Virus record (IMG/VR): IMGVR_UViG_3300042901_002277
DNA from: a virus
Direction: 5' to 3' (one strand)
Length of the DNA: 64,000 bases
The translations under genes were made by a program, and so were the position numbers. The notes beneath the pieces are model-generated. The model saw only the letters and a program-made list of their open reading frames with translations, was not told the DNA's origin and made no database searches. This document shows, one piece after another, positions 39,234 to 63,642 of this stretch (position 1 is its first letter; each line of letters opens with the position of its first letter).

Positions 39234-39248
39234 CTGATAAAAATAACT

Positions 39249-40070: not shown

Positions 40071-40080
40071 TTATTTCTCT

Positions 40081-41617: not shown

Positions 41618-41749
41618 AAAATCTACCTAGGTGTGCCTGTTGTCCAAATCACAATGGTGTAGTATCTCTGTTGGGTCACTGATACCGCACTTGCGGTCTT
41701 AGTGAGCGGAACTCACAAGACCTACAACCTAGGAGATTAGCAGGTAAAT

Positions 41750-43454: not shown

Positions 43455-43459
43455 CCGCC

Positions 43460-44756: not shown

Positions 44757-44972
44757 GTGATTTCCTTCCTTCGTAGGTACGCACAGACTACACAAAGGAG
44801 AGGAACGAAGCAACAATCAGAGGAAACAAACGCCGCTTAATTTGCTGCCACGGGATTAGCAAATGCTAAGTAGTCCACTATACCTAGAGAGGAATAATAG
44901 ATGTGCTTATATAGGGAGACGTAATTAATGAGAACTCAATAAAGGGTTCTTAAGAAAGATTGCCCAATTATA

Positions 44973-48259: not shown

Positions 48260-48354
48260 AGTAAATTTTCCTTTTTTAGTGTTTTCCCCTCGAGACCAGA
48301 ACGTTCCGTGAATCTGAGCTCGAGGGAAATCTGTGAATTTTTTAACTTTTTTGA

Positions 48355-49527: not shown

Positions 49528-49899
49528 ATGGATAACACGACAAGATTCAATACCTATGTTAAAGCCCTTTCTCAGTTCGCCGCGCGCGAAGGACATTGCA
49601 ATGTTCCAGCCATCCATACTGAAATTGTTGAAAATAATGATGTCACACTGGGAGCTTGGGTTGGCTATGTTCGCCAGAGACGAAGAAAAAATCAACTTTC
49701 TGAAGAGCGCGCGACTGCCATCCAGGCTGTTTCCGGCTGGCAATGGGGTCCACTGAAGCCTGGTCCTGCTACAGATGCTGATAGAAATTATGAAATTTTG
49801 CAGATGCGCGCAGCCGGTTCTTCGCTCCGCCAAATTGCAGATAAATTTGATTTGAGTCGGCAGCGCGTCCATCAAATTGTTAAAAATATTCAGGTGTAA
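49528..49899 (+). CDS. Helicase-associated (HA) domain + sigma-4-like HTH fusion
   Basis: F..REGHCNVP...LGAWV..VRQ...L..ER...GWQW; SLRQIADKFDLSRQRVHQI. Confidence 0.75.
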   Translation: MDNTTRFNTYVKALSQFAAREGHCNVPAIHTEIVENNDVTLGAWVGYVRQRRRKNQLSEERATAIQAVSGWQWGPLKPGPATDADRNYEILQMRAAGSSLRQIADKFDLSRQRVHQIVKNIQV

Positions 49900-50089: not shown

Positions 50090-50392
50090 ATGAAAAAGAA
50101 ATCCTTTCCACCACCGTCATATAACGAACGACACGGGTACGACCTGTACGACGACACGGAAGACGATGACGACGAATCAAAAAAGAACATTGCTGGCGCG
50201 CTCGCCGTTGGGCTCATTGGGCACGCAGCGACAATACTTTTGTACTCTGTCATCATCAATGGATTGCTTTCAATTGGTCGGGAGTCCCGGGTTTTTGATT
50301 GGCAAATTTCGTTTCGCAATTTAGTGACTGCAGTATTTCTAGTGCAGGCGCTGCGAATTTGGGACAGGGCTATTCGCTCTCGTCAACAATAG
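50090..50392 (+). CDS. Membrane protein
   Basis: Hydrophobic segments; TATGAT 8 nt upstream. Confidence 0.55.
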   Translation: MKKKSFPPPSYNERHGYDLYDDTEDDDDESKKNIAGALAVGLIGHAATILLYSVIINGLLSIGRESRVFDWQISFRNLVTAVFLVQALRIWDRAIRSRQQ

Positions 50393-51009: not shown

Positions 51010-52548
51010 TTAGATAAGTTCAGTTCCGTTCAGTTCCTTGTATGTTCGTTTAAACATTTCAGGATAGATACTTACTGCCTTATCGCCAGCCTTTAGTTTT
51101 TTCAGTTGGTCAATCGCTTCGTCAACATGAGGCACAACAACGATGTTGTTTTTCTTACAGAAGTTAATGCACTGCATGGCAAGAACTGCTTCATAATTGC
51201 CACCCGCACCGCACACTCCACCGTCAGTAACCCAAAGAATTGGTGACTTAGAAGTTTGCTTCTGCTTCACGCCCCACTCAATTGCAGGGAAGTCAACTCC
51301 GTTGCCATATCCAACACTAGGAAGTTGATTAACCATTTTGCCTTTATGAGAAACAACCCAAAGGTTTGTTGCGTTTGCGTCACCCTTGTCGGTGTACACA
51401 GCCACAGTTGCACCCGGAGCGTTCTCAATGATTTTCGTAAGTTGTTCTCTACTGAATGACATTGAACCACTTCCGTCAATGATTACAACTCCACCAGTGC
51501 CACGAATTACCTTGTCAAAGATTCTCATCTGTGGGTCGGTAATCATTCGGTGCATTCGGCGTGGACGCATTCCCATATTGGAAGCAACACGCTTCTTTCC
51601 CAAGTTGCCTCTTGACAACACTGGCATTGGCATAAACTCAATGTTTAGTTTTTGCCATGACGCAACTCGGTATGTCGCATTGGAACTGGTGATTCCCTTG
51701 TAAGGGTTTCCGTCCTCTTTGCCTTGGTCAGTTGGTTTGATTCCCTTGTTGGAGTGCTTACCAGTACCCTCGTTGGCTTCACCGTCCTCGCCCTCTGCGC
51801 CCTCTGATTCCTCACCGTCTTGACCAAGAGCCTTGCGGAGTTTTGCTTCCTCACGCTCTCTACGAGCCTTTTCTTTTTCCTCTGCTATCTGCTCGGGTGA
51901 CTTTGCGCAAAGACGGTCAACCCATTCAGCCAGTCGTTCTGTGTGAACGAATCCCAAAGGGAATAGACCGCTAGTTGGGTCAACTTTTGTTGAGGCAAGG
52001 TTGGAGTACTTGTCAGCCTTTTTCATTTCCTTGACTGCTCGCTTGGAGATATCAAGAAGTATCGCACCCCACTCTCGTTTGTGTCTGCGGATTCCGTTTA
52101 GCAATAGTTTGTTGGACGCAGTGCCAGCAGTAGCAACTGCCATTTGCACAGCACCAGCCCAATCCTCTGTCGCACCAAGTCGTTCACCGTCAGCCGTTTC
52201 ACCACCGTCTGCAAGGTCGTTCTTAACATCAAACCCTGCCTTTTGGCAAAGATAGTTAACACGCAATTCCTCAACAACAACCATTGATTCTTGTGTTGCA
52301 ATTTTGCGTTCAATCCATTTCGACCAATCATCAGCAGGCGATACTTTTGCGTGAACCATTTCATGCGCACGAATCGCCCGAGCGAGTGAATCATCGTCAG
52401 TAGGAACTTTCATTTCCCTTGTAACGATGTTGGTGCAAGGTTCGCCACGAATTGCACGAACCTCGCCCACCGTCCACACGCCACCGTCCACATCGTTGCG
52501 TGAAAGGAACTCGGGTTCAGCCGAGATACGCTTTTTTACAGTTTTCAT
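51010..52548 (-). CDS. HExxH + VWA (MIDAS) protein, partner of MoxR ATPase
   Basis: RAHEMVH; acidic linker; IIDGSGSMS; VTDG. Confidence 0.8.
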   Translation of the reverse strand: MKTVKKRISAEPEFLSRNDVDGGVWTVGEVRAIRGEPCTNIVTREMKVPTDDDSLARAIRAHEMVHAKVSPADDWSKWIERKIATQESMVVVEELRVNYLCQKAGFDVKNDLADGGETADGERLGATEDWAGAVQMAVATAGTASNKLLLNGIRRHKREWGAILLDISKRAVKEMKKADKYSNLASTKVDPTSGLFPLGFVHTERLAEWVDRLCAKSPEQIAEEKEKARREREEAKLRKALGQDGEESEGAEGEDGEANEGTGKHSNKGIKPTDQGKEDGNPYKGITSSNATYRVASWQKLNIEFMPMPVLSRGNLGKKRVASNMGMRPRRMHRMITDPQMRIFDKVIRGTGGVVIIDGSGSMSFSREQLTKIIENAPGATVAVYTDKGDANATNLWVVSHKGKMVNQLPSVGYGNGVDFPAIEWGVKQKQTSKSPILWVTDGGVCGAGGNYEAVLAMQCINFCKKNNIVVVPHVDEAIDQLKKLKAGDKAVSIYPEMFKRTYKELNGTELI

Positions 52549-53270
52549 TTTGACAACTTCTCAATCGCAATAGCGTCAAGAATTGACTGCGCCCTGTCAC
52601 CGAATGTCAACTGGCTTGCTCGCTCGTCACCAAGACCCTTGCGGAGTTGGTCGTAAGCGATGAATGCTCGCAGTGAGATACGGCGTTCGCCAGCGTCAGC
52701 CATACGAACTGCGAACTGGCGCAATTCAGGTGAGAGACGAAGCAGAGCGCTCGGGTGTGGTTCGTTGATACGAATCTTGATTGGGAATCGGTCAGTGAGA
52801 GCCGTTGGCAATTCGCCCATGTTCTCAACATTGGTGGTCATGATTGCAGAGAAGCCTGCATTGGGACGGTGAACCCGACCAGTGTCAGGGTGTTCAAAGG
52901 AAGCCGATTCAGGTGAATCCAACATCGCCAAGAGCGTTGCATAAACATCGCCCGAAGCCTTGTCAATTTCGTCCACGATTAAGCGACCGCCCTTAATGCC
53001 GTTGCCTGCCCAAGCCTTTAAAGCCGAACCGTCAAGCCACTTAGTGCCACCCTTACCGTCAGGTAGGAATGTTCCAGTAACATCCATGTTGGTCATGTCC
53101 TCTGTGCAGACCAATCGGAATGCTCCTGCTTCAACATCGCCGATGTTCATTCCAGCGTATGTCTTGCCGATACCCGAAGGTCCAAAAAGGATTACTCGGT
53201 CAACACCGTTGTTGAGAGCGTCCTCTAGGTCTTGCCAGCACTGTGGCAGTTTGGTTTGTGTAGTAGTCAT
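52545..53270 (-). CDS. MoxR/CobS-like AAA+ ATPase
   Basis: GPSGIGKT, LIVDEID, MTTN, ALTDRF. Confidence 0.88.
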   Translation of the reverse strand: MTTTQTKLPQCWQDLEDALNNGVDRVILFGPSGIGKTYAGMNIGDVEAGAFRLVCTEDMTNMDVTGTFLPDGKGGTKWLDGSALKAWAGNGIKGGRLIVDEIDKASGDVYATLLAMLDSPESASFEHPDTGRVHRPNAGFSAIMTTNVENMGELPTALTDRFPIKIRINEPHPSALLRLSPELRQFAVRMADAGERRISLRAFIAYDQLRKGLGDERASQLTFGDRAQSILDAIAIEKLSK

Positions 53271-53306: not shown

Positions 53307-53336
53307 ATCGTACATCACGGAATACCAAATTTCCAA
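53307..53336 (-). promoter_or_regulatory. Repeated promoter 1 (-10 TACGAT)
   Basis: TTGGAA ATTTGGTATTCCGTGATG TACGAT. Confidence 0.8.
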
Positions 53337-53364
53337 AATCACTTGACACCGTGAGGCAGTAGTT

Positions 53365-53394
53365 ACTCTACATCATGCGATACCAAATTTCCAA
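53365..53394 (-). promoter_or_regulatory. Repeated promoter 2 (-10 TAGAGT), tandem with 1
   Basis: TTGGAA ATTTGGTATCGCATGATG TAGAGT. Confidence 0.8.
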
Positions 53395-53541
53395 AATCGC
53401 TAGACACTCACATTACCTATAGAGCAATTTTTTGATTTTCTTGCAGGGGTGTAACAGAGTTTCCCCGGGGCTATGGCTCTCGATTGTTAGGCTGACCTAA
53501 CACCTGTTGCCGGGGCTTAAGAAAAATGAATGAACCGGGAG

Positions 53542-53724
53542 CTAGTTGCAACCACAGCAGGCTGAGCAAAAGACAACTTCGCCATGCTCGGTGCAGTCAG
53601 CGCGGCGCGACTCACAAATAATGCAATTTTCTGCAGACATGGCAGCCTGCGCACGACGCTCCGCCTTTTTCTCTCCACGGTTCTTGCCTATCTTGTAGAC
53701 AACATAGCCACCGAGCAAACCCAT
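53542..53724 (-). CDS. Small Cys-rich protein
   Basis: CIIC...FCSACCGC; coupled. Confidence 0.55.
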   Translation of the reverse strand: MGLLGGYVVYKIGKNRGEKKAERRAQAAMSAENCIICESRRADCTEHGEVVFCSACCGCN

Positions 53725-53858
53725 TAAAGGTCGCGCCTACTTTTGTATTTTCTTTCAGCACTGATGTCGTCCCACAATAGAAGGACTGCGCCAGCGACTG
53801 CGATGATACAGACACTCATGATGATGATGTAACCAGCCACCAGTATCCCCTGAAGCAT
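53724..53858 (-). CDS. 44-aa membrane protein (missed by ORF track)
   Basis: MLQGILVAGYIIIMSVCIIAVAGAVLLLW...; TAATG overlaps on both sides. Confidence 0.6.
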   Translation of the reverse strand: MLQGILVAGYIIIMSVCIIAVAGAVLLLWDDISAERKYKSRRDL

Positions 53859-54022
53859 TAGATACCCGACTTCCTATTAGCCTCGTCTTTTGGCTGTTTG
53901 CTTCTTTCTGCCCAACAATTCGGACAGAAGTATGCGTTATCTATTACATCAGTAAAGCCATCTGTCGTAGTGTCATCATTGCAATCAAAACACTCAATTC
54001 CTATTTGGTTGCTGACGGTCAT
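53858..54022 (-). CDS. 54-aa Zn-ribbon protein (missed by ORF track)
   Basis: MTVSNQIGIECFDC...FCPNC; ATGA and TAATG overlaps. Confidence 0.6.
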   Translation of the reverse strand: MTVSNQIGIECFDCNDDTTTDGFTDVIDNAYFCPNCWAERSKQPKDEANRKSGI

Positions 54023-54522
54023 TTCATTTCCCTATCAGCCTTGGCGTCTCGGACTTCCCATAGACCCTTCTTTATCTTTCTGAAGGTAGGAGACTCCTGA
54101 ACATACTTCAGGGTGGTCGGGTAGGAGAATCCACACTGCTCCATGAGTTGTTCCGTGGTGTACTGCTCAAAGTGGTGCTGGTTAGCCCATTTCAGGAAGG
54201 CGTCCCACTTGTCAGCACGCTTCTCTGTCTTGATTTCATCTACGACAGACTCCTCATCTACCTGAATACCGCAGTATTCGCTTGATACATCCGCGATTAC
54301 AGCGTCAGGGAGCGAGTAGGAGAGCATGGTACGGATAGGACTGCCCTTTGCTCCGTCACGATTCCACACTTGGAGAACATGTAACGCCCTTGTGTAGTCA
54401 CTGATACCTTGGGAGACTTCCCGTGGCACGGCGAACTTGTCCCCGAACTCGTCAATGGCTTCAGCCCAACGAGAGTTGTGGATATCGGTAATGAATGATT
54501 CGGTTATTGACTTTTTCAACAT
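54019..54522 (-). CDS. Hypothetical protein with C-terminal wHTH-like segment
   Basis: Own promoter, SD GAAAGGA; TTEQLME.CGFSYPT..K. Confidence 0.65.
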   Translation of the reverse strand: MLKKSITESFITDIHNSRWAEAIDEFGDKFAVPREVSQGISDYTRALHVLQVWNRDGAKGSPIRTMLSYSLPDAVIADVSSEYCGIQVDEESVVDEIKTEKRADKWDAFLKWANQHHFEQYTTEQLMEQCGFSYPTTLKYVQESPTFRKIKKGLWEVRDAKADREMK

Positions 54523-54546
54523 AGTAGATACTTCCTTTCATCACCT

Positions 54547-54576
54547 ATCCTACAACAGGCGATACCAAATTTCCAA
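54547..54576 (-). promoter_or_regulatory. Repeated promoter 3 (-10 TAGGAT)
   Basis: TTGGAA ATTTGGTATCGCCTGTTG TAGGAT. Confidence 0.8.
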
Positions 54577-54741
54577 AATGAGGGTCTTCCCCCACCGTCA
54601 ATAAGGGATGGCCCCCCGGAGGTCGTCCAATTTTTTGATTTTTTTGAATATTTCAGCTGTTTTTTGAATACTCTATTTGAATACAACCAGGCCCTTCGGC
54701 CGAACAGTGCTACTACCCACTATCCGGCCCGAGCCCCGGTT

Positions 54742-55020
54742 TTACCCTTTTGTTTTTTCGAAAGATTTGTTCCAGGTGTGCGTGTAGTAGTAACTTGCGG
54801 TCGTCTTAAGCTTTCCCTCGATGTGAAATTTAACTCGAAGGTATTCAATAGCCGCCGCTACCTCTTCATCGGTGAAGTCATTATCTGTGTCGTTGCCCCA
54901 GTAACCATTTAAAAAATCGCTTTTTGCTGTATCAACAGCATCTTCACCGGTTGTGGACAGCGTGTAGTAATTCTCCTCAAGAATCTCTGCAATCTGCGCA
55001 AGGACATCCATGTCAATCAT
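54742..55020 (-). CDS. Hypothetical protein
   Basis: Coupled ORF. Confidence 0.6.
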   Translation of the reverse strand: MIDMDVLAQIAEILEENYYTLSTTGEDAVDTAKSDFLNGYWGNDTDNDFTDEEVAAAIEYLRVKFHIEGKLKTTASYYYTHTWNKSFEKTKG

Positions 55021-55430
55021 TGCTTCTCACTTTTCAACATCGTGTACAGGTCGTCTATGACGCCACCAATACTTTCCTCAACTTCAGTGTTGATGTTCTC
55101 TTCAATTGTTTCTTCTATCTTTGCTAATCCAGCAACAAAACCATCCCAAAGGTCATCAAGCATTTCGTGTTCTTCAGGGGTGAATTTCGGACCCATAGGG
55201 ATATTCCTTATCTCTACTTCTCCATCGCTCATGAGTTCCATGAGTTCATCTGGAGCAAGAGCCTGACGACGCCTTTCTGAAAAGATTCGTCCGTCTTTAT
55301 CAAAAAGTCCAGTACTCATTCTGCGATTAGCGTCCTTGAATACTGAGATTGCCTCGATGATGAGTGTTATCTCTTCAAGGGTGAATCTTTTTTTACTCAT
55401 TGAAGCGGTTACTCTTTTTTTCCTAGCCAT
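55017..55430 (-). CDS. Hypothetical protein
   Basis: Coupled ORF. Confidence 0.65.
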   Translation of the reverse strand: MARKKRVTASMSKKRFTLEEITLIIEAISVFKDANRRMSTGLFDKDGRIFSERRRQALAPDELMELMSDGEVEIRNIPMGPKFTPEEHEMLDDLWDGFVAGLAKIEETIEENINTEVEESIGGVIDDLYTMLKSEKQ

Positions 55431-55648
55431 TACAAGGTCCTTCCTGAGAACTCAAACCATTCATCATAGGTCATGCCAATAGTTCCGACAAACTCTGCAT
55501 TCTCATAGAAGTCCATGATAAAGCCCTCATGAGTGATTCCAATGTTGATGAACTTGGCGTTGACCTCGTCATAGCCACTCGTAAAAACGGTTACATCCTT
55601 GCGTGAATGCTGATTGACATCAAATGTCATCTTCTCATTGTCGCTCAC
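55430..55648 (-). CDS. Hypothetical protein
   Basis: Coupled ORF. Confidence 0.6.
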   Translation of the reverse strand: MSDNEKMTFDVNQHSRKDVTVFTSGYDEVNAKFINIGITHEGFIMDFYENAEFVGTIGMTYDEWFEFSGRTL

Positions 55649-56052
55649 TTGTCACCTGCCTCGTCCAGTCGTCGCTTGATGTTGACCATCTCAGCCAAGT
55701 ACTCATCAAATGACATTTGGAATGGGAACTCAATACCATCAACAATGTTTGAGAACAGGATGTTTCTGTTTTGCATTTGTTGCCAAAGGTCAAGGAATTT
55801 GTAGCCAGCACTCAGGTACTGGTCAAACGCTGTGAGCCACTCTTCAGCGATACCTACAGATACCCAAGAGTCCTCACCTTCTACCAAGGAGAGCGAACTG
55901 CCGTTATCCCAATCAACACCGATACACATAGCGCCAGCATTATCGTACGGCTCCCGTGTAACGGTCCCTAGGTCACCCTTGCGAATCCGTGTGTACGGGT
56001 CGTTAGTGCGGACCAATTTGATTCTTTCTCCGACAAGTGTCTTATTCATCAT
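55645..56052 (-). CDS. DUF4314-like protein
   Basis: GERIKLV..NDPY..I..GDLGTV...V.WDNGSSLSLV.GED. Confidence 0.75.
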   Translation of the reverse strand: MMNKTLVGERIKLVRTNDPYTRIRKGDLGTVTREPYDNAGAMCIGVDWDNGSSLSLVEGEDSWVSVGIAEEWLTAFDQYLSAGYKFLDLWQQMQNRNILFSNIVDGIEFPFQMSFDEYLAEMVNIKRRLDEAGDK

Positions 56053-56077
56053 TCTCTCCTTAGTAGTAGTTGAGTAC

Positions 56078-56107
56078 ATCCTAGTACGCCCGATACCAAA
56101 TTTCCAA
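56078..56107 (-). promoter_or_regulatory. Repeated promoter 4 (-10 TAGGAT)
   Basis: TTGGAA ATTTGGTATCGGGCGTAC TAGGAT. Confidence 0.8.
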
Positions 56108-56110
56108 AAT

Positions 56111-56329
56111 CTAGATTCCCTCTAGAACATCGGAAGGCTTCACCTTGAGTGCTCCGCAGAGCAGGATGAGTGACTGAAGGCTCGGTGAGAAGTGTCCGTT
56201 TTCAATCCGGTTGATGGTCTTGCGCTCGAGCCCCGCCTTCTTTGCCAACGCATCTTGCGAGAGTTCTCGCTCAATACGCAACTTACGAAGTCGTGCGCTA
56301 ACCCGTTGTTCTTTCTTTTGGGTATTCAT
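56111..56329 (-). CDS. XRE-family HTH regulator
   Basis: LRKLRIERELSQDALAKKAGLERKTINRIENG..SPSL. Confidence 0.9.
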   Translation of the reverse strand: MNTQKKEQRVSARLRKLRIERELSQDALAKKAGLERKTINRIENGHFSPSLQSLILLCGALKVKPSDVLEGI

Positions 56330-56359
56330 GTTTTCTCCTTGTTAGGTGTTTGGTTTATT

Positions 56360-57025
56360 TCAGTTTGCACTGAAAATCTGTTGTGCGGTCATGGCTGTAT
56401 CCATGCCTTCTGCAATCTCAAATGTGAGAGCGTCTTTCCATTCCGAATACTTTTCGTCAAAGTTCTCGTCGTCGTCGTCGTATTCAGGTTGCCCCTGCAT
56501 TTCGTGTTCACCTTCTGAAACAATCTCGCCTTTGTGAAAGACCATGTACCCAGCAAAGAAATCTGCTTCCTCTGTGAAGTGCATGCCAAACACAAGTTCA
56601 GGGAATTGTTCGGAGATGTTCTTCATAAGACCAACCGCAGGGCTCCAAGCACTTTCCCAATACAGCGTTATTGAGTTGCTGTTCTCGTCAAATGTGTCCT
56701 CGTCAAAATCAACACGGCAAGCACCCCATTTGGTGTCCCAGTTCGCATTCGCCCAGTCGTACCAGTCCTTGTGACCGTACTTAGCGAGATTTGACTCTTG
56801 TTGCTTGCGGTGTTCTTCTGCCTTCTCTTCACCAACATATCCTGAAACTGTTTCGTGCAGTTCTGTTGGAATTGGGAATAGTTGGTTCATGTCCCATTCT
56901 GTTCTGTTCCATTCAGGAATTGCTTTCCACTCTTCAGTTTGCTCAATGCGAATAGCCTCAATGAACCGCTTCAGTTCCTTGTTGCTTCCACGAACTTCTC
57001 CGTATTGGTTGCACCAGTTAGGCAT
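56360..57025 (-). CDS. DUF1281/YubB ferredoxin-like protein
   Basis: MPNWC, WYDWANANWDTKW, ESAWSP. Confidence 0.75.
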   Translation of the reverse strand: MPNWCNQYGEVRGSNKELKRFIEAIRIEQTEEWKAIPEWNRTEWDMNQLFPIPTELHETVSGYVGEEKAEEHRKQQESNLAKYGHKDWYDWANANWDTKWGACRVDFDEDTFDENSNSITLYWESAWSPAVGLMKNISEQFPELVFGMHFTEEADFFAGYMVFHKGEIVSEGEHEMQGQPEYDDDDENFDEKYSEWKDALTFEIAEGMDTAMTAQQIFSAN

Positions 57026-57057
57026 TATTTTCTCCCTTTGTAGTAGTAGGTGATGTA

Positions 57058-57087
57058 ACTATACAGGTACAGATACCAAATTTCCAA
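57058..57087 (-). promoter_or_regulatory. Repeated promoter 5 (-10 TATAGT)
   Basis: TTGGAA ATTTGGTATCTGTACCTG TATAGT. Confidence 0.8.
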
Positions 57088-57088
57088 A

Positions 57089-57586
57089 TTAGTACCATGC
57101 GTCAGACCCGTTGCATTCATTGGCGACCCAGCGCAACCACCAAATGGCGTACTTGACTTCCTTGTCCAAGTTCTCCCCGTCTTTGGTTACGGTTCCCATT
57201 TCTGTCATACGGTTTTCCATGTCGTCTGCTAGAGCGAGGCAGGATGATGGTGACTTATATGTACCATCCTCGTTGTCGCCGTAGAACGAATACTCAAAGT
57301 CAGGCAGTTCCAGTGCTTCTATTAGATAGTTGCCGTACTTCCCTCTGTACCAGCAGTCCGTTCCGAATATGCCAGTAACGCTTCCGTCTTGCAAATCAGT
57401 CTTTGACAGGGAGATGAGGTAGGGGCATTTGCCTTCTGCCTGCGTTGCTCTGCAGTCAATTCGTTTTTCAGATAATCCTGTTTCTTCGTCAACAATGGCT
57501 ACGCCGTCTTTGTCAAGAATGTCAACTTTTACAGCAGTGCCAAGACGCTCGCAGGCGTATCGGTGTGGGATGTTGTCTAAGCCCAT
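57089..57586 (-). CDS. Hypothetical protein
   Basis: Own promoter, SD AAGGAG. Confidence 0.7.
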   Translation of the reverse strand: MGLDNIPHRYACERLGTAVKVDILDKDGVAIVDEETGLSEKRIDCRATQAEGKCPYLISLSKTDLQDGSVTGIFGTDCWYRGKYGNYLIEALELPDFEYSFYGDNEDGTYKSPSSCLALADDMENRMTEMGTVTKDGENLDKEVKYAIWWLRWVANECNGSDAWY

Positions 57587-57614
57587 GTGAACTCCTTAGT
57601 AGTAGGTGAGTACC

Positions 57615-57644
57615 ACTATAGCGACCGAGATACCAAATTTCCAA
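57615..57644 (-). promoter_or_regulatory. Repeated promoter 6 (-10 TATAGT)
   Basis: TTGGAA ATTTGGTATCTCGGTCGC TATAGT. Confidence 0.8.
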
Positions 57645-57731
57645 ACTCTTCCACCACCGTCATGATAATGGGTAATACTTGACTCAATCTGAATTATGTG
57701 GTACAGCAGACCGGTGGGTGGCCCGAACCGG

Positions 57732-57745
57732 CGAACACATGTTCG
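57732..57745. promoter_or_regulatory. SOS (LexA) box-like palindrome
   Basis: CGAACACATGTTCG = CGAAC-N4-GTTCG. Confidence 0.65.
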
Positions 57746-57797
57746 CTCAGCCCCGGTGCTCATTGTGGCGGCCCGGCCGCCGGGGCTCTATGGTCAA

Positions 57798-58121
57798 TTA
57801 TTCGTCGTGAGCAATTACCAGGTTGCCGCCAACGATTTGCCAGCCGTCGTCATGAGTGTTCCAAACAAACGATAAAGCTTCTTTTATTCCATCTAGGTAA
57901 TAGAACACATCATCATCTAGAACACCGAAGTCGTCCCACTGTAGATAGACAGGGTCTTTACTGAATGATAAGTAGTAATGCAACAATTCACCCTCATCAA
58001 CCCAGTACACCTGTGCGTCCATGCCAACCAGCACGCCCTCTTCAGCGATTACATATTTCAGGTAATCCTTCAACAATTTCAGAGTAATAAGCGTCTTTCT
58101 AATCGTTGCTCTAATCATCAC
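57798..58121 (-). CDS. Hypothetical protein
   Basis: GTGA overlap with upstream gene. Confidence 0.6.
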   Translation of the reverse strand: MMIRATIRKTLITLKLLKDYLKYVIAEEGVLVGMDAQVYWVDEGELLHYYLSFSKDPVYLQWDDFGVLDDDVFYYLDGIKEALSFVWNTHDDGWQIVGGNLVIAHDE

Positions 58122-58438
58122 GCGCTCACTACATCTATGAGTTGCACGAATGAATCCAGTGGCTCTGCTTCATCAGGATACGCCCTCATGGCGTCGTCTA
58201 GGAACATTTGGTAAGCACCCAAGTCGTCACCTCTGAAGTAGTGATTCGCTCCACCATCTCCATAGTTCTCTACACGGCATGCAATAATTCCTTTTCTTAG
58301 AATTTGTGCCATCCAAGTAATTCCTCTTGAAGTCTCCATCTCTTGGATTACCTTGAAGTCGTACAGGCTTGCGATGTCGTCCACCGCAGGCTCTGTCACA
58401 AATAATTTCAGTGAGGGTGGAAGTGTTGAGTAAAGCAT
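58118..58438 (-). CDS. Hypothetical protein
   Basis: Leader ACTACTAACAAGGAG; VENYGDGGAN. Confidence 0.65.
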   Translation of the reverse strand: MLYSTLPPSLKLFVTEPAVDDIASLYDFKVIQEMETSRGITWMAQILRKGIIACRVENYGDGGANHYFRGDDLGAYQMFLDDAMRAYPDEAEPLDSFVQLIDVVSA

Positions 58439-58475
58439 GATTTCTCCTTGTTAGTAGTTGTTTGAATTCTAGTCG

Positions 58476-58994
58476 TCAGCAGATTTGGAATCCACCGCAG
58501 TTCTCTAGGAACTCTGCGAACCGCTTGACATTCTCCACATCAAACGGATAAGCGGACAGCCACGATTCCCTAGTGCCAATTCCATCACAGGCATTGCACC
58601 AGCCATGAGTGCGACCAGTAAGAATCTGCGCCTCGGGTGAGAGTTCTTTAGTAGGCATTCCCATTTCCACGCCGACCTCATCATTGCGAATGCCAGTGCA
58701 CTCACAGAGGTTGCATGCTTCACGGGGAAGCGAGGAACGCCATTCGTTGTAGGTCTGTGCGTACTTTTCTACCGTGCCATTTTCAAGGTCTATCTTGAGT
58801 GACCAAGCCAATGATTCAGCCAGTGCGTCGTCTAGCCCGTCACCGTCGTTTGAGTGCCACGATTCGCAACCGCTAGCAATGTCGTCATAGTTGGTGCAGA
58901 TAAAGTCTGCCAGTGGACGCCACCACCACACATTGTTGCGGAAGTATTCGCCCTTTTCATTCTTTGGCTTTACGCCATAGACATCCATACCCAT
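58476..58994 (-). CDS. Hypothetical protein with DnaJ-like CxxCxxxG Zn insertion
   Basis: CNLCECTG...CNACDGIG; own promoter. Confidence 0.7.
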   Translation of the reverse strand: MGMDVYGVKPKNEKGEYFRNNVWWWRPLADFICTNYDDIASGCESWHSNDGDGLDDALAESLAWSLKIDLENGTVEKYAQTYNEWRSSLPREACNLCECTGIRNDEVGVEMGMPTKELSPEAQILTGRTHGWCNACDGIGTRESWLSAYPFDVENVKRFAEFLENCGGFQIC

Positions 58995-59030
58995 TTTCTT
59001 GCTCCTTGTTAGTAGTAGTTAGGTGACTGA

Positions 59031-59060
59031 ATCTTACAATACTGAATACCAAATTTCCAA
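59031..59060 (-). promoter_or_regulatory. Repeated promoter 7 (-10 TAAGAT)
   Basis: TTGGAA ATTTGGTATTCAGTATTG TAAGAT. Confidence 0.8.
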
Positions 59061-59087
59061 AATCGAGAAGAGCCCCGCGCTCTCCCT

Positions 59088-59555
59088 TTACGCCTCAACC
59101 TTGTCAAACGGGCACTCGGCTACTTGACCGAATACAGCCTCGTACAGGTCACGCCCGTCTTGCCATTCACTCCAGTCTCCATCTGACGAGATACGGACAC
59201 AAGAGCCGTAGATTTCTTTCGCCCGAATGAGTATCGCAGTAACTACAGCGTCATACGGTTTCTGTGCAGTCTTGCAAAAATCAAAGATTTCAGGCTCATC
59301 TTTACGCCATTCAACTTGAGTTGGCAGTGCCTTCCAAGTAAAGGTTTCGTGAGACATATCATCTATGCCGTTGAAACTGAACTCTCCCTCTGTGAACTGT
59401 GGTTGAGTTTCGTTCTCTCCACTCCAGTCGCCAAGTTTTATGCCAATGCTCTGTGCGTGTTCGCAAATAGCCTTAGCGTCTAGTGCGAGTTTGCCGTACA
59501 TATAGGCAGACCCAGCGTTCTTTCGTGGTCGGTAGTTGTAATGCGTGTAACCCAT
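59088..59555 (-). CDS. Phage hypothetical protein (MGYTHY...FCKT..KPYD type)
   Basis: Own promoter and GAAAGG SD. Confidence 0.7.
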   Translation of the reverse strand: MGYTHYNYRPRKNAGSAYMYGKLALDAKAICEHAQSIGIKLGDWSGENETQPQFTEGEFSFNGIDDMSHETFTWKALPTQVEWRKDEPEIFDFCKTAQKPYDAVVTAILIRAKEIYGSCVRISSDGDWSEWQDGRDLYEAVFGQVAECPFDKVEA

Positions 59556-59585
59556 AGTTAGTGCCTTTCGTTAGTAGGTAGTAGT

Positions 59586-59615
59586 ACCTTAGCAGACCCA
59601 ATATCAGATTTCCAA
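59586..59615 (-). promoter_or_regulatory. Repeated promoter 8, variant (-10 TAAGGT)
   Basis: TTGGAA ATCTGATATTGGGTCTGC TAAGGT; overlaps upstream stop codon. Confidence 0.7.
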
Positions 59616-59807
59616 TTTTTTCTGTTCGTAGACCATGAACTCACCATCACTGTCACGGCTGATTCCAGTCACCCACATAGAGCGACCAATCTGCCCGTAG
59701 TCCTCTATTGCGTTCTGAACTTCCTCTACGGCAACGCCACAGCACTCGCTGTCGTTTTCAGCTTGCACATCAAGCGTCACCATTACTGTTACTCGGTAGG
59801 TGTTCAT
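59604..59807 (-). CDS. Hypothetical protein
   Basis: Coupled; 3' end overlaps the next promoter motif. Confidence 0.6.
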   Translation of the reverse strand: MNTYRVTVMVTLDVQAENDSECCGVAVEEVQNAIEDYGQIGRSMWVTGISRDSDGEFMVYEQKKLEI

Positions 59808-60094
59808 TAGTAGTTACTCCAATCGTAGTTGTCGTTTTTGTGTGCGATTTCCTCGGAACATACTCCGATTACTTTTAGCGTTTCGCCGTCAATGACACGG
59901 CTACATTTCTCACAAAGATAGGTATCGCCGTCCCATTCTCCGTTGAGTGTTGGCGAGACAATCTCTCCAGTCTTTAGGCAAGAGTAAAAGCCCTCGTAGT
60001 TTGGTTGGTTGCCACATAGACACTGAAACCAATCAGTAGTTCCACCTATGTACTCCTCGTACAGTCGGTTATTCATACTCAACCTCTGTTCCAT
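59807..60094 (-). CDS. Zn-ribbon-like hypothetical protein
   Basis: CLCGN...YLCEKC; true start may be MNNRL. Confidence 0.6.
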   Translation of the reverse strand: MEQRLSMNNRLYEEYIGGTTDWFQCLCGNQPNYEGFYSCLKTGEIVSPTLNGEWDGDTYLCEKCSRVIDGETLKVIGVCSEEIAHKNDNYDWSNY

Positions 60095-60314
60095 AGTCGT
60101 GTATGCATTCGCTGTCGTACTCCTCTGCGTGGTCTTCCATTGTGCGGAAGTGGCAATTCTCGTTTATCCACTCATAGCGAGCGTCAGCGTCCCACTCATT
60201 CCACTCAAACGGAAGTTCCATTCCTTGTGGCATGTCGTAGTACTTGTAACGGGTGTACTTGACAAGCATGTGCTCATCAACGGTAACGGCAAAGCGTGTA
60301 GGTGTAGTAGTCAT
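60069..60314 (-). CDS. Hypothetical protein, leaderless
   Basis: ATG (MTTTP) 6 nt after -10 TACTAT; ORF-track extension runs through the promoter. Confidence 0.65.
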   Translation of the reverse strand: MTTTPTRFAVTVDEHMLVKYTRYKYYDMPQGMELPFEWNEWDADARYEWINENCHFRTMEDHAEEYDSECIHDYGTEVEYE

Positions 60315-60320
60315 GAGTAC

Positions 60321-60350
60321 ATAGTAGTACGCTGGATACCAAATTTCCAA
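60321..60350 (-). promoter_or_regulatory. Repeated promoter 9 (-10 TACTAT), leaderless
   Basis: TTGGAA ATTTGGTATCCAGCGTAC TACTAT GTACTC ATG. Confidence 0.8.
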
Positions 60351-60651
60351 AGTGCTTTCCGCCACCGTCAAGATAATAGAGGCTTATGGATATCTGTTGG
60401 CGATTTTTTTGCTCGCTCCGATTATTGCAAATATTTTTATTTTCTTGCAACTTTCTGGGAATTTTCTGGCTAGCCCCGCACGGCGTTCTGGCCGCACCGA
60501 GGCCGGGGCTCTTGGGGAAAATAGCTACCTTGTTATTTAGGTATCCATCAGATAACCGCTATTACCACAACCTGGGCAGTGTTCGGTATCTAATCTAATT
60601 TCTAATTGCTCTTCAGTGCTTACTGTTTCGCACCAATTACAGATAATCGTT

Positions 60652-60885
60652 TCAGGCGTTTTCATTAGTTGCCCACCGATTTTCGCTGTCATAGAAGCAA
60701 GTGTTACATACGAAGCCGTCTAGGTCGTTATCCCAGACTGGCTCACTCCCAAAGGTGCGTACGGTCATCTCCATTCCGCATGAGTCGCAATTAGCCCTAT
60801 CGCCACGAATATGAATTACGCCGTGTACGAGTGGCAGTGAGTTGATTTTTTCGATATATGCCTCGCTCATGTCGGTCACTCCCAA
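60652..60885 (-). CDS. Zn-ribbon-like protein
   Basis: CDSC...CNTC. Confidence 0.55.
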   Translation of the reverse strand: MGVTDMSEAYIEKINSLPLVHGVIHIRGDRANCDSCGMEMTVRTFGSEPVWDNDLDGFVCNTCFYDSENRWATNENA

Positions 60886-61145
60886 GCCCTATTGAGCAGT
60901 ATCCCTGCGAATGGGTTGGGGTACTTCACCTCGTCATTTAGCCAACGCTCACTATCGGAGTGTTGAGTTTCGCAGTCTCGGAATGTCTCAGTGGCGAACG
61001 CCTTGTCATCTTTCATGAGGCGCACCAGCAATTTACCAGTGCCGTCTTCCCAGACATCTAGTTGGTAGGTAGCGTCAATGCCACCGAACGGACCAGCTTG
61101 CTCACCGAATACGGATAATTTATGAGTCATCGTTACAGTGCTCAT
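60876..61145 (-). CDS. Hypothetical protein
   Basis: TAATG coupling. Confidence 0.6.
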   Translation of the reverse strand: MSTVTMTHKLSVFGEQAGPFGGIDATYQLDVWEDGTGKLLVRLMKDDKAFATETFRDCETQHSDSERWLNDEVKYPNPFAGILLNRAWE

Positions 61146-61435
61146 TACTTACCACCCCTTTCGGAGTAGTAAGCAACGGCTTCGGTCAGTGTGGTGCAGT
61201 AGTCACCGCTATAGCGCTCCCAGCCACTAGGGCGAGCCACAACGGTCCATACGGCGAACTTGTGGAATGGATTAGTTGGGTTATAGCAGACCGTAATCCA
61301 TGAAGCGTACGAGTCACCAATTTCACGGTCATTCTTTTTCGTGAGTGCCAAGACGGTTATTTCAGTGGCGATTACTTCGCCAAGTTTTAGTTCAGCGAAT
61401 GTTAGGTCCACTGAATTGTCGGTTAGTAGGTACAA
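61145..61435 (-). CDS. Hypothetical protein
   Basis: TTG start after GAAAGGG SD downstream of the promoter. Confidence 0.6.
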   Translation of the reverse strand: MYLLTDNSVDLTFAELKLGEVIATEITVLALTKKNDREIGDSYASWITVCYNPTNPFHKFAVWTVVARPSGWERYSGDYCTTLTEAVAYYSERGGK

Positions 61436-61464
61436 GGTATTCCCTTTCGTAGTAGTTGGGATAG

Positions 61465-61494
61465 ACACTACAACACCGAATACCAAATTTCCAA
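61465..61494 (-). promoter_or_regulatory. Repeated promoter 10 (-10 TAGTGT)
   Basis: TTGGAA ATTTGGTATTCGGTGTTG TAGTGT. Confidence 0.8.
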
Positions 61495-61626
61495 AATTAT
61501 TGAGAGCCCCGCAGCACTAGATGCTGGGGTGTGCGGCGGGGCTTTTCGCACGCATAAAGGAAGCCCTGCCCACCAGTTACGGCAGACAGGGCTTCGGTTG
61601 TTCGTAGGGGTGAAAGGGGTAAAGCC

Positions 61627-62067
61627 CTAGAACAAATCCATTACTGCTTCGGCAAGTGCGCCACGAGCATTACCGTCATCGGTAATTGTCTCATCAGGCG
61701 TATCAGAGAAGCGCATAACGCTGGCACAACCGTCTTTGCTGGCGAACACCACTAGGCGTACACGCCTGCGTTCAGGGTGTTGCGATGGTGGTACTTGGTC
61801 ATCATCGCTTTGCCCCTCAACAATAGGTGAAGCCCAACCGCAAGTAAGTACTGCGATGTAATCGCTTACCTTTGCTACGGCTCGGCTGTCATCGCTATTT
61901 AGCAAGTCATAAACATCGCCGTGTTCACCTGCTAGAACAAGTGCCACTCTGCCGTCATCGGTTTCGTTGATAGAAAAGAACATTGCCTGCTTTAGGTCAA
62001 AGTCCCCGTTTAGTTCGTCAGATATTGCCTTTTCGGCTGTCTCTGCCTTATGTAGTAAATCGCTCAT
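61627..62067 (-). CDS. Hypothetical protein
   Basis: MSDLL start after GAAAGGA; PSQHPERRRVRL. Confidence 0.7.
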   Translation of the reverse strand: MSDLLHKAETAEKAISDELNGDFDLKQAMFFSINETDDGRVALVLAGEHGDVYDLLNSDDSRAVAKVSDYIAVLTCGWASPIVEGQSDDDQVPPSQHPERRRVRLVVFASKDGCASVMRFSDTPDETITDDGNARGALAEAVMDLF

Positions 62068-62110
62068 CGGTAGTTCCTTTCGGTAGTAGTTGATTAGATA
62101 AGCACCACTC

Positions 62111-62140
62111 ACATTACTACCCCCGATACCAAATTTCCAA
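62111..62140 (-). promoter_or_regulatory. Repeated promoter 11 (-10 TAATGT)
   Basis: TTGGAA ATTTGGTATCGGGGGTAG TAATGT. Confidence 0.8.
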
Positions 62141-62341
62141 AATACGGGTAGCCCATACAAGAGCCCCGCTGAACTAATCTCTTGGGGTGAACGAACTAGA
62201 GCAAGCGAGAAGCCGGGGCTTATCAAAAAGAATTGCCGAGTTTGATATCGAGTTGTACAACCTTTGGGTACAGATAAGAGCCGTAGAGGAAAGTAACGCC
62301 GAGTTCACTGCCGACAATTTACGCAAGAGTTTCAGGGTAAT

Positions 62342-62380
62342 AAAAAGAGAGGGCTAGAGATTTCTCTCTAACCCCCTCTC
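62342..62380 (-). terminator. Intrinsic terminator
   Basis: GAGAGGGGGTTAGAGA-GAAA-TCTCTAGCCCTCTC-TTTTT after the 62396 stop. Confidence 0.7.
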
Positions 62381-62395
62381 GGTAGGTGGATAGGA

Positions 62396-62794
62396 CTAGA
62401 CCGCTTCGGCGGTTTCGGTAACTGCGCCTTCGGCAAGGTCACGGATAACGATACGGGTGTAAGCCGTTGGCTTCACACACGCAGTTTCCACTTCCTCACT
62501 GATATCGCCAGCCTTACGAGCCTTATCAAAAGCCTTCGGCTCAACGGCAGTCTTGGTGACTGCGCCGAACACTTTGGCATTGACAAGTTCTGAAAGTGTT
62601 GCGACATCAAAGTTGCGACGAATTGCCTCAACAAGTTGGACACACTTGTCGTTCGCTTCCCAAGAGTTCACGCCTGCTTCGGCGTACGCTTCGGAAAGCA
62701 ATTCCTTCGCAACAGCGACGGCTTTCTCGGCAGAAGCGAGAGCCTCAACGGCACTCACATACTGGCGAGCAACGGCAGAAAGTTGCTTAGACAT
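62396..62794 (-). CDS. Hypothetical protein
   Basis: Own promoter, SD AGGGGGTG, downstream terminator. Confidence 0.7.
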   Translation of the reverse strand: MSKQLSAVARQYVSAVEALASAEKAVAVAKELLSEAYAEAGVNSWEANDKCVQLVEAIRRNFDVATLSELVNAKVFGAVTKTAVEPKAFDKARKAGDISEEVETACVKPTAYTRIVIRDLAEGAVTETAEAV

Positions 62795-62833
62795 ATTTAT
62801 TCACCCCCTTAGGTGTCTGTAGTAGTTGATACC

Positions 62834-62863
62834 ACTATACACCCCACGATACCAAATTTCCAA
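62834..62863 (-). promoter_or_regulatory. Repeated promoter 12 (-10 TATAGT)
   Basis: TTGGAA ATTTGGTATCGTGGGGTG TATAGT. Confidence 0.8.
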
Positions 62864-62935
62864 AATCGCTTGACGCCATACAGAGCCCCGCCCTTGCCAT
62901 TGCTTGGTTGAGTTGCGGGGCTGTGAACGTGCGCG

Positions 62936-62967
62936 AAAAAAAGAGGGGCAGGTTTCCCCACCCCTCT
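62936..62967 (-). terminator. Intrinsic terminator
   Basis: AGAGGGGTGGG-GAAA-CCTGCCCCTCT-TTTTTT after the 62992 stop. Confidence 0.75.
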
Positions 62968-62991
62968 CTCCTTTTCAGTAGCCAGTTGTGA

Positions 62992-63423
62992 CTAGAGGTA
63001 CTCCGACACCGACTTGAGAGTAGATGCGTTCACATACTCCTGCTCGGTCATCTTGAGGACACGGATTGCCTGCTTGATTTCCGTTGTCTCGCGCTCGTAC
63101 CTGTGGTCAGGATACGCCTCAGGGCATTGAGGTTCTGTCGGAAGTGCCGTCTTTGGCAACTCCATAGTGACTTGGAACTCCGCTGTCTTGCTCTTTGAGT
63201 TGTTGCTGGAACTGCTGTACCAACGGTTACGGCTTGCGTCAGTCACTACGCCTTTGCTCTTGACGAGTTTGAGGATAGCCAAGTTGTAGGCTTCCTTTGC
63301 TTTCTCGTAGAGAGCCTGCTCTTTTTCTTGATTGGCAAAACGCTGTTCACGCTCGGTCAATGCTTTCTCTAGTGATGAGATGAGCGTACTCACTTTCACC
63401 TTTACGGATATGGACTTACTCAT
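62992..63423 (-). CDS. Hypothetical protein
   Basis: Own promoter, downstream terminator. Confidence 0.7.
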   Translation of the reverse strand: MSKSISVKVKVSTLISSLEKALTEREQRFANQEKEQALYEKAKEAYNLAILKLVKSKGVVTDASRNRWYSSSSNNSKSKTAEFQVTMELPKTALPTEPQCPEAYPDHRYERETTEIKQAIRVLKMTEQEYVNASTLKSVSEYL

Positions 63424-63463
63424 TATGCCCTGCCTTTCGTAGTAGTTGATTGGGGCACTAATG

Positions 63464-63493
63464 ACATTACTACACCCGATACCAGATTTCCAA
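63464..63493 (-). promoter_or_regulatory. Repeated promoter 13 (-10 TAATGT)
   Basis: TTGGAA ATCTGGTATCGGGTGTAG TAATGT. Confidence 0.78.
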
Positions 63494-63589
63494 AGCCCTT
63501 TCCGCCACCGTCACCTAAAGACGGATACTTGACAAACCACCTCGCACCTGCTAGTGCACCGATTTTTTTCGGCGATTTTTTTGGTGGGG

Positions 63590-63603: not shown

Positions 63604-63642
63604 GTCAGCCCCGCAGTACCAGTAGCGAAGCGGGGCTCTGTG

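Follow-up and report, generated by a model that had tools for sequence, protein, structure and literature searches.

The 64,000-nucleotide stretch of DNA analysed here (the window) belongs to the virus record IMGVR_UViG_3300042901_002277, and between positions 53307 and 63493 it carries 13 copies of a two-part promoter element, each consisting of a conserved upstream block and a TAnnnT hexamer at a fixed distance. We consider it fairly probable that these copies are part of an array of about 36 promoters in which the hexamer is a -10 for the sigma factor of the host, the block is read by a lineage-specific factor that the phage specifies, and the block now and then serves as a crossover point. 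What is new is that a promoter block of the host-polymerase type has been rewritten from one close relative to the next in a phage of freshwater Actinobacteria, orthologous sites having changed in concert, and that a candidate for its reader can be named.

Copies, spacing and extent of the array

A pattern search with TTGGAAATYTGRTAT returned 13 exact matches in the window, all of them on the minus strand (53322-63493). The chance expectation is 0.9 matches when up to two mismatches are allowed, and 14 matches were reached in 0 of 100 shuffled sequences. The identical 15-mer TTGGAAATTTGGTAT is present in 11 of the 13 copies, and the two deviating copies read TTGGAAATCTGATAT (at 59615) and TTGGAAATCTGGTAT (at 63493). 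In all 13 copies TAnnnT starts exactly 9 nt past the 15-mer, which is 18 nt past TTGGAA, and the 9 bases in between vary from copy to copy. A near-match on the plus strand at 50027 was dismissed as a chance match, as it has no -10 and is not conserved in the related genome G002. The first-pass annotation, which was made from the letters of the window, had described 13 co-oriented copies, 11 of them with an identical 15-mer, and a TAnnnT 18 nt after TTGGAA behind nine freely varying spacer bases. Motif, spacing and counts of this description were confirmed by the search; strand and extent had to be corrected, for the copies lie on the minus strand and the array continues past the edge of the window.

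A complete virus record (G000) of 160,449 bp, with 127-bp direct terminal repeats and a G+C content of about 45%, contains the window in reverse complement at positions 96562-160449. A whole-genome search of G000 found 33 co-oriented copies over 78864-107226 and two more on the opposite strand, at 87322 and 83565, all of which carry TAnnnT at the same spacing. The array thus amounts to about 36 copies over 28 kb, and the 13 copies in the window are its last (distal) third. No copy of the block was found outside the array in the genomes searched. In a sequence logo of the 33 copies, the block from -3 to +15 holds 1.4-2.1 bits per position and has sharp borders (aTT TTGGAAATTTGGTAT C), the spacer is weakly biased (0.1-0.8 bit per position), and the T, A and T of the hexamer are present in 100% of the copies. 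Megablast found no near relative of the phage among GenBank phages, and a tblastn search with its tail fibre gave distant and mixed matches only.

Promoter geometry and host

The distance from the end of TAnnnT to the start codon of the first long open reading frame (ORF) is bimodal: one group of distances is narrow (6-7 nt), the other wide (24-43 nt). The leaderless class (5-9 nt) comprises 3 of the 33 promoters in G000 and 12 of 19 in the relative G005, and it was also found in another seven relatives. A start codon 6-7 nt past TAnnnT is the geometry of a leaderless transcript, and this geometry, together with TAnnnT as the dominant -10, is characteristic of Actinobacteria. TAnnnT would be an ordinary -10 for the actinobacterial housekeeping sigma factor, with transcription predicted to start about 7 nt past it. 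The upstream part, from about -39 to -20, would be composed of a -35-like TTGnnn and an adjoining box that recognition by the host sigma factor does not explain. The earlier claim that the copies are promoters is supported computationally by the fixed TAnnnT, the leaderless starts 6-7 nt downstream, the orientation with the genes, and the hairpins upstream. When E. coli sigma-70 criteria were applied, only 3 of the 13 sites reached 9 of 12 matches, the -35 and -10 being mediocre. Generic sigma-70 and terminator scans gave counts equal to those of shuffled sequences, so rules of the E. coli type do not pick out the element.

Each of three complete genomes of the phage group contains three or four WhiB-like genes above the Pfam cut-off. 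In G000 these genes lie at 115260-115619 (minus strand; 44943-45302, plus strand, in the window), 86273-86605 (minus strand), and 66989-67387 (plus strand). When control genomes were searched with the WhiB profile, matches were found only in Corynebacterium and, weakly, in Thermus. The WhiB family is essentially restricted to Actinobacteria and their phages. The three WhiB-like genes, the leaderless architecture and Shine-Dalgarno sequences of the GAAAGG type support the attribution to an actinophage that had been made earlier, despite the 45% G+C. No tyrosine (PF00589) or serine (PF00239) recombinase was found in the three complete genomes, and a strictly lytic phage with an actinobacterial host is the best explanation. 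The WhiB-like gene at 86273-86605 is located in an operon that is driven by the divergent block-type promoter at 87322.

Lineage-specific blocks

Relatives were gathered by means of a conserved 512-aa protein that is encoded just past the array, which resulted in 34 loci with 52-97% identity. The G000 motif is absent from most of these loci, which were not masked, and their arrays hold other repeated blocks. Alignment on the -10 revealed that each lineage has its own block of 15-20 nt, ending 6-9 nt before TAnnnT. There are at least ten block types among the 34 relatives, each repeated 3-30 times at a fixed distance from TAnnnT. The block is uniform within each genome, with 25 of 30 copies being identical in G004, for example, and phages whose adjacent 512-aa proteins share 91-97% identity have different blocks.

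The block types were labelled A, A', A'', B, D, D' and E; in the sequences that follow, the border between the -35-like hexamer and the rest of the block is marked by a vertical bar or, in the second genus, by the word plus. Type A, TTGGAAATTTGGTATC, is found in this genome (G000) and in L139. Type A' is TTGGAAATTTGGTATTG (G002), type B is TTGTAAATCTGATATCG (G004 and five others), type D is GGAAATCTGAAGCACC (L140 and G009), type D' is GGAAATCTGAAGTACC (L138), and type E is GTAAATCTGATACA (L143). The blocks of a second genus include TTGTCG plus GTYARGGGTGGG, TTGTTG plus GGTTGGGTAAGCC, TTGTTA plus GTCGTCCGTAACG, TTGTAA plus GTCGTCCGTAGG, TTGAGA plus TAGGTCGGGG, CCTGTTGACCATAG, and AGAATATTCTGTCTGTCG, and this genus holds further types. 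A TTGnnn at the -35 position is common to most lineages, and some have no TTG there (e.g., AGAATA and TTCCTG). A further repeat was observed in L146 (IMGVR_UViG_3300042357_000554), where 22 copies of CTCTAATAGATAACT are spread over about 10 kb inside and beyond the array. This repeat is not phased to a -10, and L146 also has a promoter block of its own, TTGGCTAGTCTGTACC.

Concerted substitution at orthologous promoters

G000 and G002 have the same block type at about 85% DNA identity, and 16 pairs of orthologous promoters were compared between them. The block positions were identical in 94-100% of the pairs, the adjacent spacer in 38-81%, and the position just past the block in 25%. To judge from these alignments, the upstream block is under purifying selection. 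G000 (type A) and G004 (type B) are also about 85% identical, and 19 pairs of orthologous promoters have retained their individual spacers and leaders. Of the block positions, number 4 is identical in 0% of these pairs, number 9 in 16% and number 12 in 5%, and all other positions are identical in 95-100%. That the same three substitutions are found at 19 orthologous promoters is most simply explained by a trans-acting reader with a shifted preference, to which the sites then adapted. Shared descent and drift are disfavoured because gene conversion would carry the flanks along, and drift would not repeat the same three positions 19 times.

The block could also belong to a strong promoter for the host RNA polymerase that no dedicated factor reads, in which case duplication and gene conversion would have homogenised the copies and drift would have fixed a version in each lineage. 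It is true that duplication and recombination of cassettes take place at the block or close to it, and that most lineages share TTGnnn at the -35 position. We nevertheless regard this explanation as improbable. The borders of conservation are knife-edge, and conversion tracts would homogenise the flanks and the 9-nt spacer too, whereas orthologous promoters retain their own spacers and yet share the same three substitutions. In addition, region 4 of the host sigma-70 family reads a hexamer and not bases -30 to -20. Because of this hexamer-only reading, and because some lineages have no TTG at -35, region 4 of the host sigma factor cannot be the reader of the block.

The lineage specificity of the block and its concerted change suggest a trans-acting factor specified by the phage, and they lend indirect support to the dedicated factor that the first-pass annotation had postulated. 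Such a factor would read the block and couple all cassettes to one switch. It is more likely to be an activator, or a factor of the sigma-appropriation type, than a repressor for shut-off.

In the repressor case, the block would be the operator of a phage repressor over a promoter that is read by the host, the early set would be shut off together (as temporal control or superinfection exclusion), and the lineage-specific blocks would be immunity-like specificities. An asymmetric site of about 15 bp that is lineage-specific and occurs in many copies with biased orientation matches the stoperators of Cluster A phages (PMC6550527, PMC9283540). The -35-like TTG is at the right distance in most lineages, so the host sigma factor might suffice for basal activity. 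Against a repressor stand the lack of an integrase in the three complete genomes and of a lysogeny module, and also the block itself, which never occurs away from a -10, unlike stoperators. The mediocre sigma-70 -35 and -10 (3 of 13 sites at 9 of 12 matches) suit activation better, and the XRE-type helix-turn-helix (HTH) protein encoded in the array has a recognition helix that is invariant across block types. On balance, we think a repressor unlikely.

Candidate readers of the block

Several proteins were considered as readers of the block and rejected. A 216-aa protein with an N-terminal HTH, encoded beside the portal/terminase region, has an HTH that is identical in A and B. A 133-aa HA and sigma-4-like HTH protein (window ~49528-49899, plus strand) has the recognition helix SRQRVHQIV, which is invariant even in G005. 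The recognition helix of the 72-aa XRE HTH protein (56111-56329) is the same in A, A', B and D and almost the same in L160 and L146, and the C-terminal tails of the three WhiB-like proteins are identical in A and B. A 223-aa protein (47732-48403, minus strand), which matches no Pfam family and has a basic N-terminus and a poly-K tail, was rejected as the reader since it is as divergent between lineages with the same block (60%) as between lineages with different blocks. A complete phage sigma factor was rejected as region 2 was not found in the genome, and a guide RNA was rejected as no complement or extra copy of the block was found outside the array.

Two of these proteins are of interest in their own right. 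The 223-aa protein is hypervariable (50-66% identity) between relatives that are otherwise 90-100% identical, even between phages with the same block, and a similarly hypervariable pair of ORFs occupies the equivalent place in the second genus (L154 14594-15332). The HA and sigma-4-like protein with the C-terminal HTH (123-133 aa; 49528-49899, plus strand) is conserved and lies antisense to the operon that follows the array. One of the invariant elements could be its target, as the recognition helix is the same in both genera.

The candidate reader is a 141-residue module with two HTHs in the head polyprotein, a protein of 3567 aa (G000 33043-43743) with Pfam matches to Peptidase_S78 (30-180), UvrD (1312-1606), ArdC-N (2131-2249), MPTase-PolyVal (2275-2397) and WYL (2700-2751). 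The module (residues 1965-2106; G000 38938-39360; L129:1246-1668) is located between LSSG and FSSG tags, just before ArdC-N/MPTase. It consists of two region-4-like repeats only, with no sigma region 2. In three lineages the two tandem stretches match Sigma70_r4 at 35-40 bits, compared to a gathering cut-off of 24.1. All 13 of its PDB sequence matches are to sigma region 4, with weak E-values of 0.01-0.7, and in one of these TRERVRQIQVE of RpoS aligns to the first repeat. The AlphaFold model has six helices at a predicted local distance difference test (pLDDT) score of 82, and its top Foldseek rows are mostly sigma factors (E 0.03-1). The R-E-x-[IV]-R signature of the helix that reads the -35 is retained in both recognition helices, KREEVRQAEMR and SREDIRTREQK.

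It is possible to divide the block itself into two TTGnnnn-like half-sites that lie 8 bp apart, with TTGGAAA-T-TTGGTAT for type A and TTGTAAA-T-CTGATAT for type B. There are five lineages in which a module could be assigned to a block, namely A, A' (from the same sample as G002), A'' (G003), B, and D (G009); the module of G003 is only 56% identical. Residue 1 of the HTH1 helix is K, K, R and K where position 4 of half-site 1 is G, and T where this position is T. Residue 7 of the HTH2 helix is T, N or A where half-site 2 begins with TTGG, and R where it begins with CTGA. This covariation of module and block is suggestive but thin, as the five lineages are not independent and other helix positions differ between lineages with the same block. 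An alignment-based scan of IMG/VR for the module found 15 loci, which belong to five block lineages only, and a scan of one metagenome found two short contigs.

The block may be read by this module after delivery in the virion, with each HTH on one half-site, as a phage-private "-35 code" for the host polymerase. We offer this as a tentative proposal of low probability. As part of a polyprotein that is predicted to be packaged in the head, the module could act at DNA entry. If the proposal is true, the module is injected with the DNA and acts from the first second of infection, and the diversified codes isolate the early programmes of the lineages from each other. Among the injected tools of transcription, a survey of polyvalent proteins names virion polymerases and Alt-like enzymes, and it describes no sigma-like module and no HTH module that reads promoters (PMC5512222).

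A number of points weigh against a lineage-specific phage factor, or against the module in that role. We infer the promoter array, the activity, timing and starts of its transcription, and the existence and nature of the factor from sequence, in which activator and repressor are indistinguishable. Sigma70 region 2 (PF04542) had no match at E <= 1 anywhere in the genome. The DNA-reading parts of the 216-aa, 133-aa, XRE and WhiB candidates are unchanged across differing blocks. In the sister genus, tblastn and Pfam searches of the giant head proteins of G005 (E <= 5) and a custom hidden Markov model run over all ORFs of this genome did not find the module, though the promoter architecture is the same. 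Finally, the hybrid A/B block TTGGAAATCTGATAT, which occurs once in G000 and once in G004, is a tolerated intermediate, and the A and B specificities are therefore not sharply separated. The copy at 59615 in G000 is held by coding constraint because the block supplies the stop of the gene at 59604-59807.

Possible cassette shuffling at the block

The block had also been proposed as a recombination platform, integron-like, for the gain and loss of putative host-takeover genes, with breakpoints in relatives as the evidence to look for. Array-to-array BLAST comparisons of G000 with G004, G002, G001, L140 and L139 showed many replaced, inserted and reordered blocks, and the order of cassettes differs between genomes. 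In a statistic that pools comparisons with shared events, which tells against its weight for a crossover role, 11 of 81 boundaries of homology blocks inside the array (13.6%) lie within -8 to +2 of the motif start, where 1.6% would be expected from a uniform and 3.9% from a non-coding distribution. The wider interval from -60 to +90 of the motif start holds 43% of the 81 boundaries, versus 21% expected. About 86% of the boundaries lie away from the block. When alignments were extended with gaps from orthologous promoters, each comparison had about 6 pairs, out of 19-20, whose homology ended 0-5 nt before the block.

At 59615, there is one motif in G000 and G004, and there are two copies 31 nt apart in G002, which flank half a hairpin. 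This indel of one versus two motifs is what a crossover between copies would leave behind. In promoters 12 and 13, about 45 nt are duplicated in tandem. A 279-nt gene that is present only in G004 lies directly upstream of the promoter 10 block, with no second copy of the block at its other end. Because the block is at one end only, this gene counts against a crossover between motifs.

The platform proposal thus holds in part: breakpoints are enriched at the 5' edge of the motif and one indel runs from motif to motif, but most boundaries are elsewhere. Its integron-like part is not supported. Neither a tyrosine nor a serine recombinase is encoded in the three complete genomes, nothing was found that resembles attC or attI, and the repeats are promoters that point at the cassettes, not imperfect-palindrome attC sites downstream of them. 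As the only sequence common to all cassettes, the block would now and then be a short-homology crossover point that adds to the gain, loss and reordering of cassettes, with no site-specific recombination system involved.

It is conceivable that the repeats are primarily sites of exchange, in the manner of an integron or of the promoter-early stem-loop (PeSL) cassettes discussed below, and that their promoter look is secondary. The enrichment of breakpoints at the 5' edge, the indel between two copies, and several cassettes that adjoin the block with no spacer would fit such a role. We nonetheless consider it very improbable, since all copies have a phased -10 and are directed at a gene, about 86% of the boundaries are not at the block, and no recombinase was found in the three complete genomes.

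Anatomy of the cassettes in the window

According to public gene calls and our reading of the ORFs, the 13 promoters head 12 units of 1-4 small genes, with the last two promoters forming a tandem pair. The unit size is that given by the first-pass annotation, as is the abutment or overlap of the motif with the previous stop codon at three sites, where the distance to the stop was found to be 0-3 nt. Each unit would be a self-contained expression cassette, made up of an optional hairpin, the two-part promoter, no leader or a short leader with a Shine-Dalgarno sequence, and 1-4 small ORFan genes.

All of the promoters described in the following are on the minus strand. Promoter 1 (63464..63493) has the block TTGGAAATCTGGTAT at 63493-63479 and the -10 TAATGT at 63469-63464, and it drives a 143-aa ORF (62992-63423). 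Promoter 2 (62834..62863; -10 TATAGT) drives a 132-aa ORF (62396-62794), which is followed by a canonical hairpin with a T-run (62380-62345, minus strand). Promoter 3 (62111..62140; TAATGT) drives an ORF that ends at 61627 and has its ATG near 62066. Promoter 4 (61465..61494; TAGTGT) drives four small ORFs from 61435 down to 60537. Promoter 5 (60321..60350; TACTAT) is followed by three ORFs from 60314 down to 59604, and the ATG of its first gene (60314) is 6 nt past the -10, from which a leaderless transcript is predicted. Promoter 6 (59586..59615) combines the variant block TTGGAAATCTGATAT with the -10 TAAGGT, and this block also forms the last codons and the TGA stop of the gene at 59604-59807, the product of which ends in ...KKLEI*.

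Promoter 7 (59031..59060; TAAGAT) drives three ORFs from 58994 down to 57798, and promoter 8 (57615..57644; TATAGT) drives a 165-aa ORF (57089-57586). Promoter 9 (57058..57087; TATAGT) is located 1 nt past the previous stop codon (57089-57091), and its cargo is a 221-aa DUF1281_C protein (56360-57025, minus strand) and the 72-aa XRE-type HTH protein (56111-56329, minus strand). Promoter 10 (56078..56107; TAGGAT), 3 nt past the previous stop (56111-56113), is followed by four ORFs from 56079 down to 54742. Promoter 11 (54547..54576; TAGGAT) drives four ORFs from 54522 down to 53542. Promoters 12 and 13 (53307..53394) are the tandem duplicate pair, 58 nt apart and with similar flanks, and the pair is kept in relatives. 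They head a long operon in which a gene for an AAA_5 ATPase (52545-53270) comes first and is followed by that for the 512-aa protein (51010-52548).

About half of the promoters are preceded by a GC-rich hairpin, AGCCCCG-loop-CGGGGCT, with an imperfect T-rich tail. The terminator-like hairpin of this type upstream of promoter 2 is at 62884..62922, and further ones are at 63607-63637, 62162-62220, 61505-61543 and 60472-60510 (all on the minus strand). Four promoters in the window have a GACGGTGG hairpin instead of the GC hairpin, and several copies are located directly at the previous stop codon without a hairpin. Downstream of the promoters there is either a leader of 24-43 nt with a GAAAGG or AAGGAG Shine-Dalgarno sequence and an ATG, or no leader. 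The genes of the cargo are ORFans: no PHROG function could be assigned to any of ten of the larger ones, and the precomputed Pfam matches comprise only DUF3846, DUF1281_C, DUF4314, and one XRE-type HTH.

Other conserved elements

The element GACGGTGGYGGA (63501..63512, minus strand) is the 3' arm and loop of a G.U-rich RNA hairpin, and it stands upstream of promoter 1 in place of the GC hairpin. Further copies on the minus strand were found in the array (60358-60369, 57650-57661 and 54588-54599) and beyond it (50107-50118, 48929-48940, 47708-47719 and 47458-47469), the latter lying between genes with no promoter there. The hairpin has the loop (T/A)TGAC, the 3' arm GGTGGYGG(A/G)A, and a pyrimidine-rich 5' arm. 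Because the 5' arm pairs largely through G.U, the hairpin forms only in RNA of the array strand. Its sequence is kept in all related lineages of both genera. It may be a signal for mRNA processing or stability, or a protein-binding site.

A leader motif, AACTACTAC (63439..63447, minus strand), lies 8-15 nt before the Shine-Dalgarno sequence and is present in most cassettes of the window, with further minus-strand copies at 62819-62827, 62083-62091, 61449-61457, 59012-59020 and 56063-56071. In the form (A)ACTACTA(C/G), it also occurs in L144, L148, L152, L153 and L160. In two genes, the leader octamer directly follows the ATG (MTTT...; 60304-60311 and 53260-53267). The leader motif may be a translational signal or the site of a regulator. 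Together, the G.U hairpin and the leader motif look like RNA-level signals for processing, stability or translation. Rfam had no match in the window.

Significance and comparison with known systems

How actinophages take over the transcription of their hosts is largely unknown, and the first report of sigma displacement by a mycobacteriophage protein dates from October 2026 (bioRxiv 10.64898/2026.10.05.756390). The phage group described here is a natural experiment, with dozens of promoters per genome in which the -10 is generic and the block upstream of it was recast ten times or more in the course of divergence, once as three coordinated substitutions at 19 promoters. The pattern opens a direct way to a promoter-specificity factor, and to an understanding of how a whole regulon can switch codes and still function. 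Provided that the factors that read them are found, the blocks are ready-made sets of orthogonal promoters for actinobacteria.

Compared to the middle promoters of phage T4, where in sigma appropriation by MotA/AsiA a phage protein reads a box and the host polymerase does the rest (PMC2988021), our element is similar in that a phage box around -30 stands where a good -35 would be, and in the host-sigma TAnnnT -10 (at -12..-7); the invariant block covers about -36 to -21. It differs from the MotA box in that the block is longer (15-18 bp), overlaps the -35-like TTG, and heads what is apparently the earliest class of genes. The block also diversifies between near relatives, which has not been described for the MotA box. 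MotA and AsiA were not among the Pfam matches seen in passing, and no search aimed at these families was made.

The stoperators of Cluster A mycobacteriophages are asymmetric sites of 13-15 bp that occur in 20-35 oriented copies per genome and shift with the repressor, a monomer that reads the asymmetric site with two DNA-reading domains (PMC6550527, PMC9283540). The likeness consists in an actinophage with an asymmetric site, many oriented copies, and a sequence that shifts between lineages. Unlike stoperators, which lie in short intergenic gaps of temperate phages without a phased -10 and mediate repression, every copy of our element is phased to a -10, and the phage has no integrase. Covariation of the sites with a DNA-binding protein of the phage, as in the stoperator system, was seen only for the sigma-4-like module and in five lineages. 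Phages of the T7 group have about 15-35 near-identical promoters per genome, which differ between relatives in step with the protein that reads them. Uniformity within a genome and divergence between phages are shared with these promoters. The T7-group promoters, however, lack a sigma-type -10 and are the targets of a single-subunit phage polymerase, whereas the phased TAnnnT and leaderless geometry of our element point to the host polymerase. T4 Alt and the virion RNA polymerase of N4 are proteins for the takeover of transcription that arrive with the virion, and the similarity to them lies in the location of the candidate module, next to ArdC and MPTase, in a polyvalent protein that is predicted to be processed by a protease and packaged in the head.

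The closest parallel in layout is to the PeSLs of T4-like phages, composite terminator/promoter cassettes (Arbiol et al. 2010, PMC2839356; Comeau et al. 2014, PMC4122927) that illustrate how short conserved regulatory modules can be occasional homologous crossover points (PMC4122927). A conserved early-type promoter, a Shine-Dalgarno sequence and a start codon follow one another in both, with a hairpin in front at some of our copies, and both form units between small ORFans in a hyperplastic region. Indels, replacements and displaced ORFs at or near the elements between close relatives, as well as degraded and tandem copies, are likewise common to both. In contrast to PeSLs, our element belongs to an unrelated actinophage with an HK97-type prohead protease polyprotein, has the GC hairpin at only about half of its copies, and lacks a near-consensus sigma-70 site; its invariant block reaches 9-12 nt into the spacer, and from lineage to lineage it is exchanged as a whole. 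None of the systems compared is the family of the element by descent. In summary, the cassette layout works like the PeSLs and not like an integron, and the idea of regulatory cassettes that double as crossover points is extended from T4-like phages to an unrelated phage of freshwater Actinobacteria.

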